A stretch of DNA of 64,000 nucleotides from UHGV virus genome UHGV-0026213; one strand, given 5' to 3'. The notes under the pieces are model-generated. The model did not search any database. It saw only the letters and a program-made list of their open reading frames with translations, and had not been told where the DNA came from. Positions 5,903 to 52,076 of the stretch are shown here, piece after piece. Position 1 is the stretch's first letter. Each line of letters starts with the position of its first letter. Source of the DNA: a virus. The translations under genes were made by a program, and so were the position numbers.

Positions 5903-8900
5903 TTAATCGCGAATGATTACCGCCTGCACTTTATTGTTGGTGTCGATAAACGACATTACGCGCTCCTTGTTAAGATAAGGAGGTATCGGTAACGCAGCGT
6001 AATCCACCAGGTTGTTATTAAATTCAGTTGCCACTAACGCATTAAGCGTTTCGGGGTCTGAACTGACACCGGTCAATTCCATAACGCGCACACGATTTAA
6101 TGAGGAATAGTTGCTAATATAGTCTAACAACGTACCATAGACTTTATTCGCGGTTGCGCTATCTGCCGTAGAACGGATGTTGGCACGAACTTCATCCTCA
6201 TAAAGTCCCCCTAAACCGTAGTAAATAGGGGTATACGGATCGTTAACGATAGGTTCGATATTGAACCCTGTTAAACGGTCGGTTAATGGGATTTTCTGCG
6301 TAGTTCCCCCTGCCGCCGTACAACTTACATATTTGTCCGTCGCAGATAAATGCACCGCGACAGTATACGTAGTCCCCGCTAAGGTCAGTCTTGCACTAAA
6401 CGTTATTGCGTTGGTTGCACTACGGTTGTGGGTAAACGATACTTCAGGTTGTAATGAACTCCACGGTGCTGGCGTGACACGTTTCGTTGGTGTGAAACCC
6501 ACCACTACCGATTTCCCGCTACCGAAGTTCAAACCGAACCCTGCGTAACAATATTCACCGTTACTGTCGGTTAAACGATACCCGCGAGTGATAAGTAACG
6601 ACAACCGCATAAACTCGCCGTCGGTGTTTTTCCAACAACCTAAAACAGTTTCTAACACCGTGCCGGTTTTTGCGTTGCTTTCTGTTTCCCAACTGACTCG
6701 CATTCCTGCGTTCTTAAAAGCTGGGAACATGTTGTGGATAAACCCGTGTAGGTTATCGCTTACCCCTTTCGCGTCAAAAATCCACTTGGATGCGAGCTGG
6801 TCGTATTTCACCCCGTCTAAAGCTTTATACTGCCCACCGGCAACATAACGCCAATCTGCTTCACCGCGTACTACTGCCTGGAGTCCAGAAGCCCAGCAAG
6901 GCGCACCTACTGTTAAGTTAGCTAACCCAAGCGCTGCACGTGACGCGGAGCGCTGAATGTGTGCGTTGTCATCGGCTTTATGATCTTTCAGTTCACGGAA
7001 ATCGCCCAACCGTGTGACATTACGCATCTCCGTAACGAACACCTCAGAAATGTCGTTAACACCAATCAACCCTACACGCGTCATGGTATCCGTTTCAGCC
7101 TGACTGTAGCTGTCGTGGACAATATACTTCGCTTTGTTGTCAACAATATCAACAAAAATCCCTGCGTAGATTTCTGTATTCAATTTCGGAAAACGTTCAC
7201 TGACGTTAATCGTCATCAACGGAACGTCGTATGTTTCACCACCGATAAAATACGTTGAAGCTGGAAGCGTGACCAGAATTTTGTCTTTGACCGTAAGGTC
7301 TATTAAGTCGTTACCAGACTCACCAAAACGTATAATGTCAAGACGTGCCTCCGAGTCAACACCGCTGACAGCGCGCTCCAATTTTTCAATCTGGGATGTC
7401 TGCGCCATTACCACACTCCCATCGAGTGCTAAAGTCACATCATCCACATCCAGACCAAATTTAATCAGACCACGTTGCGCTGTGGTTGCGTTCCCTGTAC
7501 CAAAAGCGGTAAACGGGTGTTGGTGAACTTTAGGCGAGTATTTATCTAACTCCGCACGCTGTGCTGTAGAAATCGGTAAATCGGCATCGGGCGTATTCGC
7601 AACATTACCTAAACCAAAGGTAATCTTATCGATAGTAACCGAGCTGGTAAGTTGCATGTCGTTAATGTACGATTTAACTGCAACTAACTTACCGGTGAAC
7701 TCCGCATCGAGTTTTTCAATCAGTGCTGGCGTTGCTGCAAGGTTTTCAGCGGTACCGAACTCATCGGTCAACTGCCAAGCTGCCAGAGCTGTTGTATCGG
7801 TCGCGGTAGGAAGAATAAAGGTCGCTACGAACGGCGAGGCTTTTATCCCGCTACCGGTGATCGTAACCGTTGTTGTCGAACTTGCGTAGAATAAACCTGT
7901 GCCACCTGCGGTATTGCCTGGCAGATACGGGGCTACGGTGGTGGGGTCTAAGAGTTTTTTACCACGCCACAACAATCCTCGGTCATCGGGGTATAGCACA
8001 AGCTGGTTAGTACCTGCTTGGAACGTTACGGGGTTGTTACCCACGTTAACATCAGTTGAACCTTGGCCAATAAACTTGATGGATTTCGGATCAACAACAA
8101 ACTGGGCACCTAAACGTGTCTCGTCAACAACATCCGGTGCTTTCTTAATGGTAACCGTGTTACCTTTGTTTTGCGAACTAATGGTAACGGCGTCGGCAAC
8201 ATTATTGATCAGCGATTTAAAGTGGTGCTGATTCTCTAATGCTTCTAACGCAGCGTCCATGTTATCGAAGTTAATCCGACCGCTATACGTTTTACCGTTT
8301 ACGGTAATAACGACGTCAAACACGTTCCCTGTACGCTTCAGTTGAAAACGTAGCGTAAAATCCCCATCCGGTATTGCCGGATTAGGAGCTTGAGAAATAT
8401 AACGTACCGACGGTAACGGACTCCCGTAACCGTTCAATGTCAGACTGATAGTAAGGGTACCACCCCAGATTTGACCAGTAATCTCTACGAACTTACCGGA
8501 GTTACTACCCGGGTTTTCGTAGAAACGTAAACCAACCCTACCGACCGCTTCATTACCAGACGCTGTTTTACGTCCAGTAACAATAAAGTCAATATCTTGC
8601 AGGTTGGCAGGCACTGCATTAAAGTTAGCAATGAAACCGCTTTTCGCTCCTGTATAACGAAGCGCGCCGTGATATCTGTGACCACTACTAACATAGCTTT
8701 CGCTAAAATAAGGACTCACGTATTTCGACATCGAGACCGGATCAACTTCCGTCGTGAACGAAGTAAAACCCGGAAGTGTGGTAATCGTGCCGTTAACGTT
8801 CTTGCTCGGCGATTCACGAAGCAGTTTTTTCTGTGCGGTTAACGTTGCTTGTGTTGGGTACTTAGCATTAACATAATCCGTTAACTGCTGTTTCGTCTTC

Positions 8901-46907: not shown

Positions 46908-47739
46908 GAGGCCGGTTATGTCCGAACCACAATTACTGCGTTCCGTATTAAAGAAGATCAAAAGCCAGGGTGAAGACAATCAAGCTTTGGCATTAACGCT
47001 GGGTTATCAACCTGGGCGAAATAATCCTAATGGATACGTTAACGCGTCAAACATCGTGCTTACTCCTGATGAGCGCTTTGTTTATGTCCTATACCTTCGT
47101 CGTTTAGGCTACGTTTGTGCGTTACCCGAAAAACTCCCTTTTACCGATGGTATCAACCATCTTAACCTTTACTCTAACGGTCGTACTACCGTAGGGAAAA
47201 TGATCAGTAACTTCTACGCGCAACCTAACGGTGCGAAATTCGACACAATTCACGGTCAGTTTTTAACGTTAGAAGGCTACTATCATTATTTAAGGATCGT
47301 AGACTATCTGTTCTACAAAGGCTACGGAATAAACGCTTTGGGTCGTTTGGAAACTGAATATCCTGACATCCGTTTATTACGCACCCTGACTGGGGCTGAA
47401 TGTATACAACGCGGTCGGCGATTAAAGGCGAGCATTTACGGGGGCACGGATTATCGGCCTGGCGAGTTTAGCGATTACGCGAACGGTGCATTTCAAAACG
47501 CATTACTGCGTAAACTCCGACTCTTGAAGTTTGACGGAAGCTGCTTAGGTAATGTGTTATCGTACTGTCATTCGATGGGATTACCGTTCTTGCATTACTA
47601 CGTTATGAACGGCCGGGTTATTACACCACCCCATTCGGAATGGCTTCCTAATCTGGTGGTTTCTATTGTAGAAAACATCGATTTTAACGACACAACGTTC
47701 GACATTACGAGCGTCAGTGAAAGTATGGGATTAATCTAA
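46897..47739 (+). CDS. NADAR/YbiA (DUF1768)-like protein, putative N-glycosidase or ADP-ribosyl hydrolase
   Basis: KMISNFYAQPNGAKFDTIHGQFLTLEGYYHYL resembles the YbiA core FSNF..P...DG..YPT.EHYFQ. Confidence 0.4.
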   Translation: MQFKRPVMSEPQLLRSVLKKIKSQGEDNQALALTLGYQPGRNNPNGYVNASNIVLTPDERFVYVLYLRRLGYVCALPEKLPFTDGINHLNLYSNGRTTVGKMISNFYAQPNGAKFDTIHGQFLTLEGYYHYLRIVDYLFYKGYGINALGRLETEYPDIRLLRTLTGAECIQRGRRLKASIYGGTDYRPGEFSDYANGAFQNALLRKLRLLKFDGSCLGNVLSYCHSMGLPFLHYYVMNGRVITPPHSEWLPNLVVSIVENIDFNDTTFDITSVSESMGLI

Positions 47740-48398
47740 TGGGATTATTCGATACCCTTGCGCAATTGGAAAAAGCGCAGGAAGAAGAGGTTATTCGCGT
47801 TGCGGGCGAATCCATTAAACGCGAAGTGGAAAAGGAATATTGCGTCTGGGTTAAACCTACGCAAGCGGGATGGGATTGGCTGCACGCACAGTCCACTAAG
47901 ATGTTCATGGACATTCTCATGCCGATAGAAGGTGGGCGTCGCCGTATCCGTATTAAAGAAGACGGTACAGCACAGCTAACGCTTAAGCGTAAATTCCTGG
48001 ACGGAAAGGTTGAAGAGAATTCGGATATCGGGATTAGTTCTGCACTCTCTTTTTACAAGGACGGTTATTTGGCGCACCTGGTGAAACGTATTCACTTAGA
48101 ACCGGGTGAATTAGCCGATAAGGGTGCTAAGCATTGGGATATTGATATTTTCACGATCACCACCGGACACCCCGCAATTGAAGTTTCGGGTGACTTTAAC
48201 GATCTCCTCACTGAGATGCGTAGCAGTACCAGCGTCGGTGACTGGGTGAAAGTTGAACTGGAAGTCGAACGTTACGAGATTGCGGATGTTCTGTCTGTGA
48301 TTCCGTTTGAGTTTGACGGCCATATTCCGGCTACGCCAAAAGATCCTGAAGACCAAGAATATCTTCGTGATTACTGGGATTCAGTTACCCGCATGTAA
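47739..48398 (+). CDS. Hypothetical protein (219 aa)
   Basis: ORF followed by a CCCTACTCC-type terminator. Confidence 0.5.
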   Translation: MGLFDTLAQLEKAQEEEVIRVAGESIKREVEKEYCVWVKPTQAGWDWLHAQSTKMFMDILMPIEGGRRRIRIKEDGTAQLTLKRKFLDGKVEENSDIGISSALSFYKDGYLAHLVKRIHLEPGELADKGAKHWDIDIFTITTGHPAIEVSGDFNDLLTEMRSSTSVGDWVKVELEVERYEIADVLSVIPFEFDGHIPATPKDPEDQEYLRDYWDSVTRM

Positions 48399-48436
48399 CA
48401 CCTACCCTACTCCTGACTAGGAGTAGGGTATTTTCA
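48399..48436 (+). terminator. Intrinsic terminator (CCCTACTCC/GGAGTAGGG family)
   Basis: CCTACCCTACTCCTGACTAGGAGTAGGG followed by TATTTTCATTTTT. Confidence 0.6.
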
Positions 48437-48460
48437 TTTTTACCCTAAAGGAGAATTATC

Positions 48461-48829
48461 ATGCAAGCTCAGTTTTTTAGTACACCCAAAGGTTTCGGTT
48501 TTAAATTCCCTGAATTTGTTTTACCAAAACAAGTTATTGAGGTACCCTTCCCCCGTTATGTGCAATTAGGACTGCGCACTGTACTTGCCAACTTTTCGGG
48601 AAAGACTGTGGAATTTCGTGTGTGGGAAGGTTCGGGAAGTCCTGGTGGTGTTATGTTTGTTGATTACAATTGGATTAAAAGAACAGGTTTTCCGCTTGTA
48701 CGAACAGTTGAGGCTGCTCGTGGATTACCCTTCCACGCTATACTGGGAGATATAACGTTACCTGTAACTGGCGATTATTCTTCTCCTGCGGATGACGAAT
48801 ACCAAATTCATCTTGTTTTGTTGAAATGA
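48461..48829 (+). CDS. Hypothetical protein (122 aa)
   Basis: SD CTAAAGGAG. Confidence 0.45.
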   Translation: MQAQFFSTPKGFGFKFPEFVLPKQVIEVPFPRYVQLGLRTVLANFSGKTVEFRVWEGSGSPGGVMFVDYNWIKRTGFPLVRTVEAARGLPFHAILGDITLPVTGDYSSPADDEYQIHLVLLK

Positions 48830-48889
48830 TTTTTACAGTTGGGAACAGACTTATGTCTCCCAAGACTGCGTTTAAGCGGAGAAACAATT

Positions 48890-49354
48890 ATGCGTGGATA
48901 TATTCTCGATCTTGCAATTTCTGTAGAAGAACTTGTGGAAAAACTCGGCGGTACCGGTCATGGGCTTCATGGGAAGACCAAAAGCATAGCTCATCTTCTC
49001 GAACCAAAATACGAACGGAAACTCCACATGATTGCTTCCGTTCGCAACAAAGCCGCTCACAGGAGAGTTCTTCCCGATCGCATAGACGTCTATGAACAAG
49101 CTGTGGAAGAAACGAGGCTCTATTTAGAAGAACTGATTGGGGAAGAAGAACGGAAACGTCGTTGTGAAGAGGAAATAAATCCCAGCTGTCTGGAACGCGA
49201 AGCGACGTGGAGAGAACGGGCAGAAGAGGCCAAACGACGTAACGAAGAGAAAAGATGGGACGATATGAGTGTAATAGAAAAGATAGGTTGGGGTGCCGGG
49301 ATTGCAATCGTGGGAGCTGCGGTTGCGTACCTTAAAATAAAGTCTCGTGACTAA
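48890..49354 (+). CDS. HEPN-motif protein with C-terminal transmembrane helix (candidate RNase)
   Basis: IASVRNKAAHRR fits the HEPN R-x4-H motif; C-terminal IGWGAGIAIVGAAVAYL is hydrophobic. Start refined to the internal ATG (MRGYILD) with GGAG SD. Confidence 0.35.
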   Translation: MRGYILDLAISVEELVEKLGGTGHGLHGKTKSIAHLLEPKYERKLHMIASVRNKAAHRRVLPDRIDVYEQAVEETRLYLEELIGEEERKRRCEEEINPSCLEREATWRERAEEAKRRNEEKRWDDMSVIEKIGWGAGIAIVGAAVAYLKIKSRD

Positions 49355-49368
49355 ATCGGGTATCGGAA

Positions 49369-49914
49369 ATGAAACAAATACAGTTAACTGATCACGTTAA
49401 TGCGTTTAAACACTTTCTGGATAACGCGGGTATAAAACCTGGCGAACAGTCGGACGCATGGACTGCACATGTTTATGGAAGTATTGGCAAAGTCTGTGAA
49501 TCCGCGACAACACACGACGGGTTGTTTGTTGCTAAAGCGGTGGGTATCGCCTTGTGGGATATTGCTGCTCTAGTTTACGTGATGAATAACGGGGATTTAC
49601 GTCCCCTTGAAAAATCGCTACACCGACTACTAGCCATTAAGAAATGGAAAAACGAACATCCTGAGTCAATCGCGGTTACGTTGATGCCAGAAGCGGTACT
49701 TGCTATCAAAGCGGTACGAAGTTGTACCGCACGCGCACAAATGGAGCGGCGTCTACATCTCGCGACGCTCTTTTATCAATTGGCCAGAATTGTAAAGATG
49801 AACGGCCTAATCTTCGACCGGGTTCTACAGAACGGACGTATAAGTTGGACAGAAGAACTAAGTAGTTCTCCGTTCTATACAAAACTAAAACTTAAAGACA
49901 TTTTGAAGGATTAA
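49369..49914 (+). CDS. Hypothetical protein (181 aa)
   Basis: ORF in the gene-dense plus block. Confidence 0.45.
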   Translation: MKQIQLTDHVNAFKHFLDNAGIKPGEQSDAWTAHVYGSIGKVCESATTHDGLFVAKAVGIALWDIAALVYVMNNGDLRPLEKSLHRLLAIKKWKNEHPESIAVTLMPEAVLAIKAVRSCTARAQMERRLHLATLFYQLARIVKMNGLIFDRVLQNGRISWTEELSSSPFYTKLKLKDILKD

Positions 49915-49915
49915 C

Positions 49916-50224
49916 ATGGAAAACTATTCGGGTTGGGCAATTTCGCAGTGCATTGGCTATTCTTTACGTTCTTTAGTGCGTACAATTTATAACAAAAACT
50001 CGGGTGAAACCATTTCACCACAGTTACTGGGTAAATTGGAAGTCGATGTTAACCACAAATTAAAACAGTTACTCGACAGCCACGTAAGAACAATGCGTTG
50101 GGAGTTCTTACTACGTGGTAAGAAGCCTTCAATTACCGTTGTAGCAGAAGGCAGTGAAATCGTACTGCAATCCAACGCAGACCTGTTTGAAATTTTAACT
50201 GAACTCGAAAAGGACAAAATCTGA
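49916..50224 (+). CDS. Hypothetical protein (102 aa)
   Basis: ORF tightly abutting neighbours. Confidence 0.4.
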   Translation: MENYSGWAISQCIGYSLRSLVRTIYNKNSGETISPQLLGKLEVDVNHKLKQLLDSHVRTMRWEFLLRGKKPSITVVAEGSEIVLQSNADLFEILTELEKDKI

Positions 50225-50544
50225 TGACTGTGAACGACAATATAAAGAAAAAGATTGACGAAATCATAAGCGTCAGTTTAGATAGAATCGAATTAATTCC
50301 CGAAACTAAGGAGATCAAATATTACGTTCCTGCGGACGAACTATTTCCAGGTCTTCTTAGAATCTCACCAAAAAAGGTTGAAGAGGCTAAACGGCAATTC
50401 GAAGTTCGTGGCCTTAAGGTTGACATTGTTAACAAAAAACATTTCCAAGTAACGTATAGTCAGGAAAACATTATATTTAGTCCTGAACAAGCGCAACGTA
50501 ATTTAGATATTTTAACGAAACGAATGGGGAATAATAACAAATGA
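50224..50544 (+). CDS. Hypothetical protein (106 aa)
   Basis: Start overlaps the upstream stop; its stop overlaps the thyA start. Confidence 0.4.
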   Translation: MTVNDNIKKKIDEIISVSLDRIELIPETKEIKYYVPADELFPGLLRISPKKVEEAKRQFEVRGLKVDIVNKKHFQVTYSQENIIFSPEQAQRNLDILTKRMGNNNK

Positions 50545-52076
50545 AACAGTATTTAGCGTTAATGCAAGACATTCTGGATAACGGTGTTGTCAAGAAAGAC
50601 CGCACAGGTGTAGGGACACTATCTGTATTTGGTCGTCAACTACGTTTTGACCTGAAAGAAGGTTTCCCATTAGTTACTACGAAGAAGGTTCACCTGAAAA
50701 GTATCATTCATGAACTGTTGTGGTTCTTAAACGGTGACACTAACGTGAAGTACCTGCAAGAGAACGGGGTAAAAATTTGGGATTCATGGAGGCGGCCATA
50801 CGTAGGTTTTACTGGTAAAGTCATTCGCATTCCACGATTGAAAAAAGAATACGTCCCTTTTAATGGAACTTTTCCTTTGGCCATTCCTAGTTTCGATTCA
50901 ATAGAAGATAAAAAATTGGCATACGCCTGGAAACGAATGATGCATCGCTGTTATGATAAAACAGCACATAACTACCGACATTATGGTGCAAAGGGTGTAA
51001 GCGTTGCTTTACGTTGGCACGACGTAACTAATTTTGTTAACGATGTTAAAAAACTGCAAAATTGGTTTTATAAAAGTAAGAACTGGAATGACTTCGAACT
51101 CGATAAAGATTATTACGGCTCCAATCAATATTGCCCCGACGGATGTGTATGGCTCAGTAGAGGAGAAAACGTCCATCATGCGTGGGTACGCATTATTAAA
51201 GGTGACGGAACACAATACATTTGCCGAACGTATAAACATGCATCCCAATTAACTGGTTTAAGCAAAACATCCATCCACAGATTCGTTAAGGAAGGCATTA
51301 CCCCACATCTTAAAGGAAATAACAGAATCAAAGGTGTAAAAAATTGGATTATGCAAAAAGCTACTACTGAAGACTACCTCTATCGCAACGAAATTAACGA
51401 CGACGGAGATTTAGGCCCAGTCTACGGTAAACAATGGCGAGATTGGGTAGGTCCAGACGGTCGCCACCACGACCAGATCAGCAAAGTTATCCAACAACTT
51501 CGTGAAGACCCTGACTCCCGCCGTATTATCGTTAGCGCCTGGAATGTAGGTGACCTGGACGATATGGCACTTAATCCATGCCACAACTATTTCCAATTCT
51601 ACACAACAGAAATGACGTTGCTTGAACGACTGGATTGGTACGAAGCAAATGAACCGGAAAAATTTGCGAACGCGCCACTTATTAATCACGAAGATATTGA
51701 TGATGAAGAACGACTTCATGAAACTTTAGATCGTGAAGGTATCCCTCGTCGTAAGCTTTCATGTTTTTACATGATGCGGAGCAACGATTACCTACTCGGC
51801 GCGCCATTTAACGTCGCTTCGTACGCGTTGTTAACTCACATGATTGCACAGCAGTTGAACATGGTTCCAGACGAGTTGGTTTATAGTGGTGTAGATGTTC
51901 ATCTTTACTCTAACCATCTGGAGCAGGCAAAACTACAACTTACTCGCGAACCTTACCCGCTACCTAAACTGGTTATCAAACGTAAACCTGATTCCATCTT
52001 CGATTACAAATACGAAGACTTCGAATTAGTTGGTTATCAATCGCACGACACAATTAAAGCTCCCATAGCTGTCTAA
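50541..52076 (+). CDS. thyA: Thymidylate synthase with two in-frame insertions (511 aa)
   Basis: N-terminus MKQYLALMQDILDNGVVKKDRTGVGTLSVFG, and GDLGPVYGKQWR, DSRRIIVSAWNVGDLDDMALNPCH, PFNVASYALLTHMIAQQ, PLPKLVIKRKPDSIFDY all align with ThyA; catalytic Cys retained. About 205 extra aa after IWDSW and about 46 extra aa after QFYTT. Confidence 0.85.
   Translation: MKQYLALMQDILDNGVVKKDRTGVGTLSVFGRQLRFDLKEGFPLVTTKKVHLKSIIHELLWFLNGDTNVKYLQENGVKIWDSWRRPYVGFTGKVIRIPRLKKEYVPFNGTFPLAIPSFDSIEDKKLAYAWKRMMHRCYDKTAHNYRHYGAKGVSVALRWHDVTNFVNDVKKLQNWFYKSKNWNDFELDKDYYGSNQYCPDGCVWLSRGENVHHAWVRIIKGDGTQYICRTYKHASQLTGLSKTSIHRFVKEGITPHLKGNNRIKGVKNWIMQKATTEDYLYRNEINDDGDLGPVYGKQWRDWVGPDGRHHDQISKVIQQLREDPDSRRIIVSAWNVGDLDDMALNPCHNYFQFYTTEMTLLERLDWYEANEPEKFANAPLINHEDIDDEERLHETLDREGIPRRKLSCFYMMRSNDYLLGAPFNVASYALLTHMIAQQLNMVPDELVYSGVDVHLYSNHLEQAKLQLTREPYPLPKLVIKRKPDSIFDYKYEDFELVGYQSHDTIKAPIAV

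Follow-up and report, generated by a model that had tools for sequence, protein, structure and literature searches.

The 64,000-nucleotide stretch of viral DNA analyzed here, from UHGV virus genome UHGV-0026213 (the window), carries a gene for a 154-residue protein that very probably joins a HEPN fold to a C-terminal membrane anchor. The gene, referred to below as the HEPN-TM gene (TM, transmembrane), is real: it has a conserved motif, a HEPN-like fold, and a conserved anchor, and its distribution and synteny can be followed across phages, plasmids, and chromosomes. An earlier note, made from the letters alone, had described an R-x4-H peptide, a charged Glu/Arg-rich helix, and a hydrophobic end, and had proposed a membrane-tethered HEPN ribonuclease (RNase) acting in host shut-off or interference with host immunity. 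Reading of the open reading frame (ORF) and conservation among homologues confirm the description. The interpretation holds in part: the HEPN-like fold and the anchor stand, but the proposed role fits less well. The features of the gene are as follows.

48890..49354, plus strand: complete coding sequence of the tail-anchored mini-HEPN protein, 154 residues plus stop (direct reading, homologue alignment)
48878..48881, plus strand: Shine-Dalgarno-like GGAG, 8 nt upstream of the ATG (direct reading)
48890..49144, plus strand: N-terminal HEPN-like four-helix domain, residues 1-85, with predicted helices at 2-18, 25-32, 39-58, and 65-89 (domain-only model)
48926..48928, plus strand: E13, invariant acidic residue of helix 1 and candidate auxiliary active-site residue (alignments)
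49043..49060, plus strand: R52-N53-K54-A55-A56-H57, which form the R-x4-H motif at helix 3's C-terminal end (conservation; HEPN definition of PMC3710099)
49145..49255, plus strand: Glu/Arg/Lys-rich charged helical linker, residues 86-122 (alignment, composition)
49256..49282, plus strand: conserved juxtamembrane segment W123-D-D-M-S-V-I-E-K131 (W-x-[DE]-[ML]-[ST]-x-x-E-K), common to plasmid homologues (alignment)
49283..49333, plus strand: hydrophobic Gly/Ala-rich tail-anchor helix IGWGAGIAIVGAAVAYL, residues 132-148 (alignment, hydropathy; model confidence is low here)
49334..49351, plus strand: short basic C-terminal tail KIKSRD (direct reading)

The ORF is intact, opening with an ATG and closing with a stop codon. 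The ATG at 48890 is favored over an upstream TTG at 48839 because homologues begin MRGYILD or MREEILD. Among the phage alleles compared, the ratio of nonsynonymous to synonymous substitution rates (dN/dS) of the N-terminal domain is mostly 0.04-0.66, on small substitution counts. A 139-residue antisense ORF (48888..49307) was unsupported. Taken alone, the R-x4-H motif is within chance expectation, in keeping with the earlier caution that it is short: the pattern occurs 29 times in the 21,019 residues of the mechanical ORFs of the window (0.21 expected per 154 residues), and the stricter R[NDH]x3H occurs 4 times (0.03 per 154 residues). The hydrophobic end, taken alone, is a weak feature; its best Kyte-Doolittle 19-mer, which starts at residue 132 with a mean of 1.66, is matched by 132 of 5000 composition-preserving shuffles (2.6%). 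We count the observation as real because motif and anchor are conserved across homologues, not because of the motif alone.

The HEPN domain and its relatives

The product contains the peptide IASVRNKAAHRR, and VRNKAAH includes R52 (49043-49045) and H57 (49058-49060). A word-indexed search found close homologues in 57 clusters at 46-97% identity, and in an alignment of 16 of these proteins the first 85 residues are strongly conserved; R52, N53, K54, and H57 do not vary, nor does much of the TM segment. At E<=1e-3, an exhaustive HMMER search with a profile of the N-terminal domain recovered 338 cluster representatives. When 81 of these distant relatives (18-36% identity) are aligned, E13, R52, N53, and H57 alone are invariant, with G20, G23, G25, H27, S32, and A49 nearly so; the family signature reads E13 ... 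G-[AG]-x-G-x-G-L-H-E-K ... I-A-x-x-R-N-K-x-x-H-E.

The active site of HEPN proteins consists of R-x4-6-H, placed where helix 3 ends or the helix 3-4 loop starts; a polar residue (N, D, or H) comes directly after the Arg, and a second conserved acidic residue upstream, often within E-x3-[KR] in helix 2, lies near the motif (PMC3710099). The window protein shares the fold and the motif position: its modeled domain is an up-down four-helix bundle of two alpha-hairpins, and R52-N53...H57 closes helix 3 (residues 39-58). For the acidic residue, E13 is a candidate that is invariant but belongs to helix 1, and E14-x3-K18 is present. E28 of the "GLHEK" segment in helix 2, common in the family, is Gly in the window protein.

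Structure prediction agrees with this assignment. The AlphaFold2 (AF2) model of the whole protein is confident for the N-terminal domain only, the C-terminal half being poor, and a domain-only model built on a 66-sequence alignment has a predicted local distance difference test (pLDDT) of 97.4 and a predicted template modeling score (pTM) of 0.86. Almost all of the top 21 Foldseek matches are HEPN chains (probability 0.98, E just 0.15), and HEPN proteins rank top in two independent structure searches. A deep-profile sequence search of the PDB gave HepS as the best match, across iRNKyAH (E 0.14); the narrow-profile PDB search gave spurious repeat-protein matches only. In Pfam, DUF4145 (PF13643) matches at 13.3 bits (E 0.092) over profile positions 21-72 of 88, spanning the motif and falling below the gathering cut-off of 23.1 bits. 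The same model matches 7 of 15 close homologues (best E 0.013), and Abi_2, also a HEPN family, matches 3 of the 15. Among 80 distant relatives scanned, DUF4145 is matched by 16 at E<=0.01 (best E 5.5e-7) and HEPN_Apea by 6, and the RiboL-PSP and Swt1 HEPN models are likewise represented. Relative P0059 scores exactly at the DUF4145 cut-off, and relative P0211 is named "DUF4145 domain-containing protein" by NCBI.

We conclude that the N-terminal domain is a divergent, minimal HEPN of the DUF4145-like branch. Because its score lies under the gathering cut-off while relatives bridge to the family, the window protein is better described as a divergent sister group of PF13643 than as a formal member. 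The earlier assignment of a HEPN R-x4-H site is thus upheld by a predicted HEPN-like fold and by Arg, Asn, and His residues that are invariant in close and distant relatives. A chance ORF, or a chance motif in a protein of unrelated fold, could call on the frequency of R-x4-H (0.2 per 154 residues), the shuffles of equal hydrophobicity, and the Pfam and Foldseek statistics, each of which is sub-threshold. It would have to accommodate 338 relatives that conserve the motif, a high-confidence model, and a conserved anchor; the profile search and the structure searches effectively refute it.

Bacterial membrane-associated HEPN groups, including the DUF4145 type, were predicted by Anantharaman et al. 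in 2013 (PMC3710099). The window protein itself is matched by no library of known systems; PHROGs, NCBIfam, and PADLOC contain no family for it. The 2013 work names groups with an N-terminal WP-TM, with an Abi2/Swt1-type domain, and with 2 TM plus a Zn ribbon, describes DUF4145 fusions to "Zinc Ribbon, TM", and includes dsDNA viruses in the phyletic range (PMC3710099). With DUF4145-like HEPN proteins (clan CL0291) the window protein shares the four-helix fold, R-N-x3-H where helix 3 ends, and an N-terminal HEPN followed by a TM; in its relatives, Zn-ribbon (DZR), NERD, or AAA+ domains are added, in line with that study. It differs in its minimal 85-residue domain, its own signature, and a single C-terminal anchor without a Zn ribbon. 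Compared with group 3 of the same work, the order of an N-terminal HEPN followed by a TM is present, but in place of a TM pair and a C-terminal Zn ribbon there is one TM with a 6-residue tail and no Cys clusters.

Stalk, membrane anchor, and topology

The helix that follows the domain is strongly charged, with 15 Asp/Glu and 12 Lys/Arg among the 43 residues from 85 to 127, and small residues abound in the anchor (GWGAGIAIVGAAVA), so that the earlier description of a charged helix followed by a hydrophobic one is borne out by composition and by the conserved anchor. Linker length differs between alleles through AEIN/AEMN repeat indels, giving proteins of 136 to 191 residues. At least one hydrophobic 19-mer is present in 108 of 147 distant relatives. 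Among 139 relatives with the domain trimmed, 46 have exactly an N-terminal domain and a single TM that lies no more than 15 residues from the C-terminus. In 56 others, one to several TMs are C-terminal, and just 3 have TMs at the N-terminus. Past their TMs, larger relatives bear NERD, double-zinc-ribbon, or ClpB-like AAA+ domains; relative P0090 has a Zn ribbon (DZR), and a Zn-ribbon protein is encoded beside relative P0061. Membrane association is thus a trait of the mini-HEPN family.

Additional domains in relatives bear on topology. In Acinetobacter relatives the TM is followed by a C-terminal domain rich in Cys and Asp, which we recognized by eye, without a family search, and take to be Excalibur-like, and peptidoglycan-binding models match some distant relatives. 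These observations are suggestive of a HEPN domain that faces the cytoplasm (N-in). Weighing against this orientation, the short C-terminal tails are usually basic (...FRR, ...TSK, KIKSRD), a misfit with the positive-inside rule. ElaB, YqjD, and other C-tail-anchored proteins of bacteria, however, have basic C-terminal tails. These C-tail-anchored, ribosome-associated proteins of E. coli are also the model for a reading in which the window protein is a noncatalytic tether that binds RNA, nucleotides, or ribosomes without cleavage and modulates translation or dormancy in carrier cells. The tail-anchor layout and the basic C-terminus resemble that class, several HEPN families are noncatalytic binders, and the Bapsvirus-like phages described below persist in growing isolates. 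However, noncatalytic HEPN families lose R-x4-6-H (PMC3710099), which is invariant here, and similarity to DUF883-type proteins was absent from all searches run. We regard such a tether as improbable.

The main mechanistic rival to an RNase is a membrane pore or depolarizing effector like Csx28, an accessory of type VI-B2 CRISPR systems. The HEPN-like bundle would then serve as an oligomerization scaffold, with the Arg and His used for protomer contacts or ligand sensing and Gly/Ala-rich helices lining a channel, and the outcome would be growth arrest or lysis timing. Csx28 is a precedent: it is a small anti-phage protein with one TM helix and a cytoplasmic HEPN-type four-helix bundle, the motif of which lies at a face-to-back interface. 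The abundance of small residues in the anchor, membrane segments as the commonest partner of the mini-HEPN domain, and weak PADLOC matches of a 2TM effector model on relatives point the same way. Csx28, however, has an N-terminal TM, a divergent motif within a face-to-back octameric pore, and a dependence on Cas13b, whereas the window protein has the reverse domain order and a canonical motif, and no cas genes are present in its block of the window or at homologue loci. A pore is judged rather unlikely.

Phage, plasmid, and chromosomal contexts

PHROG and tblastn matches (virion proteins, a UvsX-like recombinase, an SbcC-like protein, and a 2058-residue transglycosylase tail protein) place the window in a phiKZ-like jumbo phage. 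Its closest cultured relatives are the Erwinia phages phiEaH2, Stratton, and Asesino (Erskinevirus) and the SPN3US-type Seoulvirus; one structural protein is 78-84% identical to its Erskinevirus/Seoulvirus counterparts at the amino acid level. By sequence, the phage appears to fit the proposed genus "Bapsvirus", of nucleus-forming-type Chimalliviridae with genomes of ~222-226 kb. This Chimalliviridae lineage of ~220-226 kb has been described from clinical assemblies by the hundred (Salmonella, E. coli, and Shigella) and is thought to persist in a carrier-like state (PMC12768965). Close homologues of the HEPN-TM protein are nearly all on ~221-226-kb contigs from Salmonella, Shigella, E. coli, and Enterobacter, and IMG/VR contains 221-225-kb genomes with the gene (loci L005-L008). 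One IMG/VR homologue is identical over the N-terminal 84-residue query and differs at two positions in the full-length protein. Two RefSeq "plasmids" of ~222 kb, from E. ludwigii (NZ_CP134650.1, locus L001) and E. coli (NZ_CP173450.1), are 83-84% identical to the window; these are complete phage genomes deposited as circular plasmids of their hosts. The presence of the phage in many Salmonella and Shigella isolate assemblies is consistent with a carrier-like state.

Within the phage, the gene is probably accessory because the corresponding slot of Erskinevirus and Seoulvirus holds an unrelated gene: in Asesino and Seoulvirus Lh1B the flanking genes are kept and the slot is occupied by an unrelated 140-residue protein without the motif and without a TM. 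Among INPHARED phages the HEPN-TM gene was not found by megablast with DNA or by tblastn with the protein. In the Bapsvirus-like genomes sampled, by contrast with those sister genera, the slot is always filled by the HEPN-TM gene, in two diverged forms. The long form has 154-191 residues; the short form has 136 residues and a different post-motif region and anchor. The first 50 residues are nearly identical between them. The post-motif region and anchor of the short allele (L030 3501-3911) resemble those of a tandem-HEPN protein of 3.6-kb E. coli plasmids (L029 683-1564), which suggests recombination between phage and plasmid copies. That plasmid protein has 293 residues, with a pair of HEPN domains followed by a coiled stalk and then an anchor, and its C-terminal half is like the short phage allele. 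On NZ_CP148488.1, a gene for a 172-residue protein with a long Gly/Ala-rich hydrophobic C-terminal half (L029 1548-2066) lies directly downstream of the tandem gene and overlaps it; its product might be a partner or a bacteriocin-like peptide.

Other homologues reside on further plasmids and on chromosomes. The sole cargo of a 2,078-bp Col(MG828) plasmid of E. coli (NZ_CP145633) is a HEPN-TM homologue of 144 residues (MRGYILD...WSDMSVMEKI...YFKIKD), encoded beside a helix-turn-helix (HTH) protein and nothing else. P0206, a 129-residue protein with 41% identity and the same juxtamembrane motif and anchor, is found on ~100-kb conjugative plasmids of Enterobacteriaceae, between ArdA and DUF1380/YubE/orphan methylase genes and near psiAB, hok, and parM-like genes. 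In these plasmids (8001-8390 of loci L025 and L026) the homologue lies within the leading region, which includes ArdA, PsiA/B, a ParB-like gene, hok, and an orphan N6/N4 methylase. It is encoded on the strand opposite to all of these neighbors and so would not be part of the early set expressed from single-stranded DNA. Another relative adjoins TraI and TraG genes of a conjugative element, and chromosomal copies occur in Planctomycetota, Acinetobacter, and others in unrelated neighborhoods. A search with a narrower alignment returned 14 genomic loci, none of which is a viral contig.

Across the plasmid and chromosomal loci compared, no neighbor is conserved that could be a partner gene, and a toxin-antitoxin reading was rejected on that ground. 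Within the window there is no homologue of the HTH protein encoded on the 2-kb plasmid, nor of the Gly-rich neighbor on the 3.6-kb plasmid; the unit of inheritance therefore seems to be the single gene. From its sequence distribution, the module behaves as portable cargo of persistent jumbo phages and of Col and conjugative plasmids, and the gene looks like a mobile weapon rather than a core phage function.

These contexts bear on the role that the earlier note had suggested. An RNase of the lytic cycle, made early, might degrade host or immune-system RNAs near the membrane, at the entry site or an early infection vesicle, as a means of shut-off or counter-defense. The gene belongs to a co-directional block with nucleotide-metabolism genes (thyA and a MazG-like gene) of a type usually expressed early or in the middle of infection, it is kept in the same slot in all Bapsvirus-like genomes sampled, and a plasmid homologue sits in a leading region amid anti-restriction and anti-SOS genes. 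However, the closest cultured relatives manage without the gene, a homologue is the sole cargo of a 2-kb plasmid, others are carried by Planctomycetota and Acinetobacter chromosomes, where host shut-off would be senseless, and the leading-region homologue lies on the other strand from the genes that are expressed early. Host shut-off or interference with immunity is thus compatible with the early-type block but fits the sister genera, plasmid cargo, and chromosomal copies less well, and we consider it unlikely.

The block that contains the gene runs in the order 122-residue gene, HEPN-TM gene, 181-residue gene, 102-residue gene, 106-residue gene, and thyA. Its start is likely marked by the following hairpin.

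48403..48440, plus strand: terminator-like hairpin with a 12-bp stem of 6 GC pairs and a T-run, directly after a 219-residue gene (consensus scan)

This is the only plus-strand site among 5 terminator-like sites in 47600-50600, where shuffles give 2.8 expected. A sigma-70 promoter scan gave 1 site versus 5.2 expected and is uninformative; jumbo-phage promoters lie outside the consensus scan. Downstream of the HEPN-TM gene, the 181- and 102-residue genes (49369..50224) take the place of the single 303-residue gp250 of Asesino (L009 4999-5910), by a possible split or fusion; phrog_10269, with a profile length of 299, matches the 181-residue protein. The 106-residue gene (50224..50544) is missing from short-allele variants (L030, L031), in which thyA directly follows the 102-residue gene, making a second small variable slot. 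The thymidylate synthase ORF (50541..52076) encodes 511 residues versus 341-346 in relatives, with an in-frame insert of ~199 residues (about 50790..51386) after ...IWDSW. HNH-endonuclease families of PHROG match this insert (phrog_2081, E 3e-29). The explanation of the long thyA by a group I intron was rejected, as Rfam shows none; the insert looks like an in-frame module derived from a homing endonuclease.

Proposed mechanism and role

Our studies allow us to propose how the protein may work. The conserved R-N-x3-H, the tandem variant, the stalk, and an anchor rich in small residues are together suggestive of an RNase that faces the cytoplasm and whose pairing would be membrane-controlled. 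The protein would be tail-anchored in the inner membrane, its cytoplasmic part being a minimal four-helix HEPN on a variable charged stalk. Two domains build the active site of characterized HEPN RNases, which are metal-independent (PMC3710099). By analogy, two HEPN domains would pair to form a composite R-x4-H site, which would cleave RNA with no need of metal and yield 2',3'-cyclic phosphate ends; the plasmid homologue that fuses two HEPN domains to one stalk and anchor bears on this requirement for pairing. The stalk and the anchor are the likely control points of pairing or clustering, such that activation of the enzyme would take place at the membrane. From these features we infer an N-in topology, activation by dimerization, RNase activity, and a role in exclusion or competition. 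That the protein is an active RNase is somewhat more likely than not. For the explanation taken whole, a tail-anchored, cytoplasm-facing, dimerization-dependent RNase for competition between mobile elements, we hold a slight preference.

Known single-gene systems offer partial parallels. RAZR, an E. coli anti-phage protein that combines a zinc finger with a DUF4145 HEPN RNase, and Ishtar, an anti-plasmid protein with an N-terminal DUF4145/DUF3644 HEPN, are each single-gene, DUF4145-type systems that are nontoxic until assembled or activated; oligomerization completes the RNase site of RAZR, and RAZR and HepS are harmless until a phage trigger assembles them. RAZR and Ishtar rely on soluble sensor domains (a zinc finger and a beta-rich C-domain, respectively), whereas the window protein has a charged stalk and an anchor only, and no direct PADLOC or PDB sequence match links it to either. 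HepS, a HEPN tRNA nuclease of the Gifsy-1 prophage, differs in being a soluble tetramer triggered by a tail-tip protein. HepT of MNT-HEPN pairs is soluble and neutralized by an adjacent MNT antitoxin; here the neighbors are a conserved 122-residue phage gene and a 181-residue gene without a Pfam nucleotidyltransferase match, and plasmid and chromosomal homologues have unrelated neighbors, with neither MNT nor any other conserved gene among them. The HEPN-TM system of phage-inducible chromosomal islands (PICI; Fillol-Salom et al., Cell 2022) is presented as a HEPN effector with a transmembrane element that acts against phages in Enterobacteriaceae (PMC11087260, PMC12948488), and to that extent it resembles the window protein as a HEPN and a transmembrane element on an Enterobacteriaceae mobile element. 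PADLOC-DB 2.0 gave no match for the window protein or for five relatives. The PICI system is reportedly made of two genes, for separate HEPN and TM proteins.

Cargo status on plasmids and persistent phages, absence from sister genera, and allelic turnover in the slot suggest a role in competition or in control of the carrier cell. In the phage, the protein would most likely serve competition with other phages or plasmids, or carrier-cell control, rather than virion production; as a conflict module, the assignment is tentative. A bolder version, which we consider doubtful, is a one-gene, self-sufficient module that is exchanged among Col plasmids, conjugative plasmids, and persistent nucleus-forming jumbo phages and confers superinfection immunity through a membrane-gated RNase. 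Such an RNase would stay silent until the envelope is disturbed, for example by entry of a rival phage or plasmid, and would then shut down translation locally.

The fold assignment is solid, and the biology is open to cheap tests. If the gene is merely a housekeeping accessory, the result comes down to annotating a hypothetical protein, a routine matter. Cas13, Csm6, RNase L, and many abortive-infection systems have HEPN RNases as their effectors, and how each of these is silenced and activated is the central question. With a stalk and a membrane anchor as its sole regulatory parts, this protein would be one of the simplest switchable HEPN enzymes and would permit a direct test of membrane-gated activation. 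Because the gene is found in carrier-like Bapsvirus-like phages and makes up the whole cargo of a 2-kb plasmid, it is a cheaply testable candidate for a factor in superinfection, plasmid competition, or persistence. A membrane-gated RNase of this kind, if real, would provide superinfection immunity to a carrier-state phage or plasmid and could help "lytic" Bapsvirus-like phages and their hosts to coexist over the long term.
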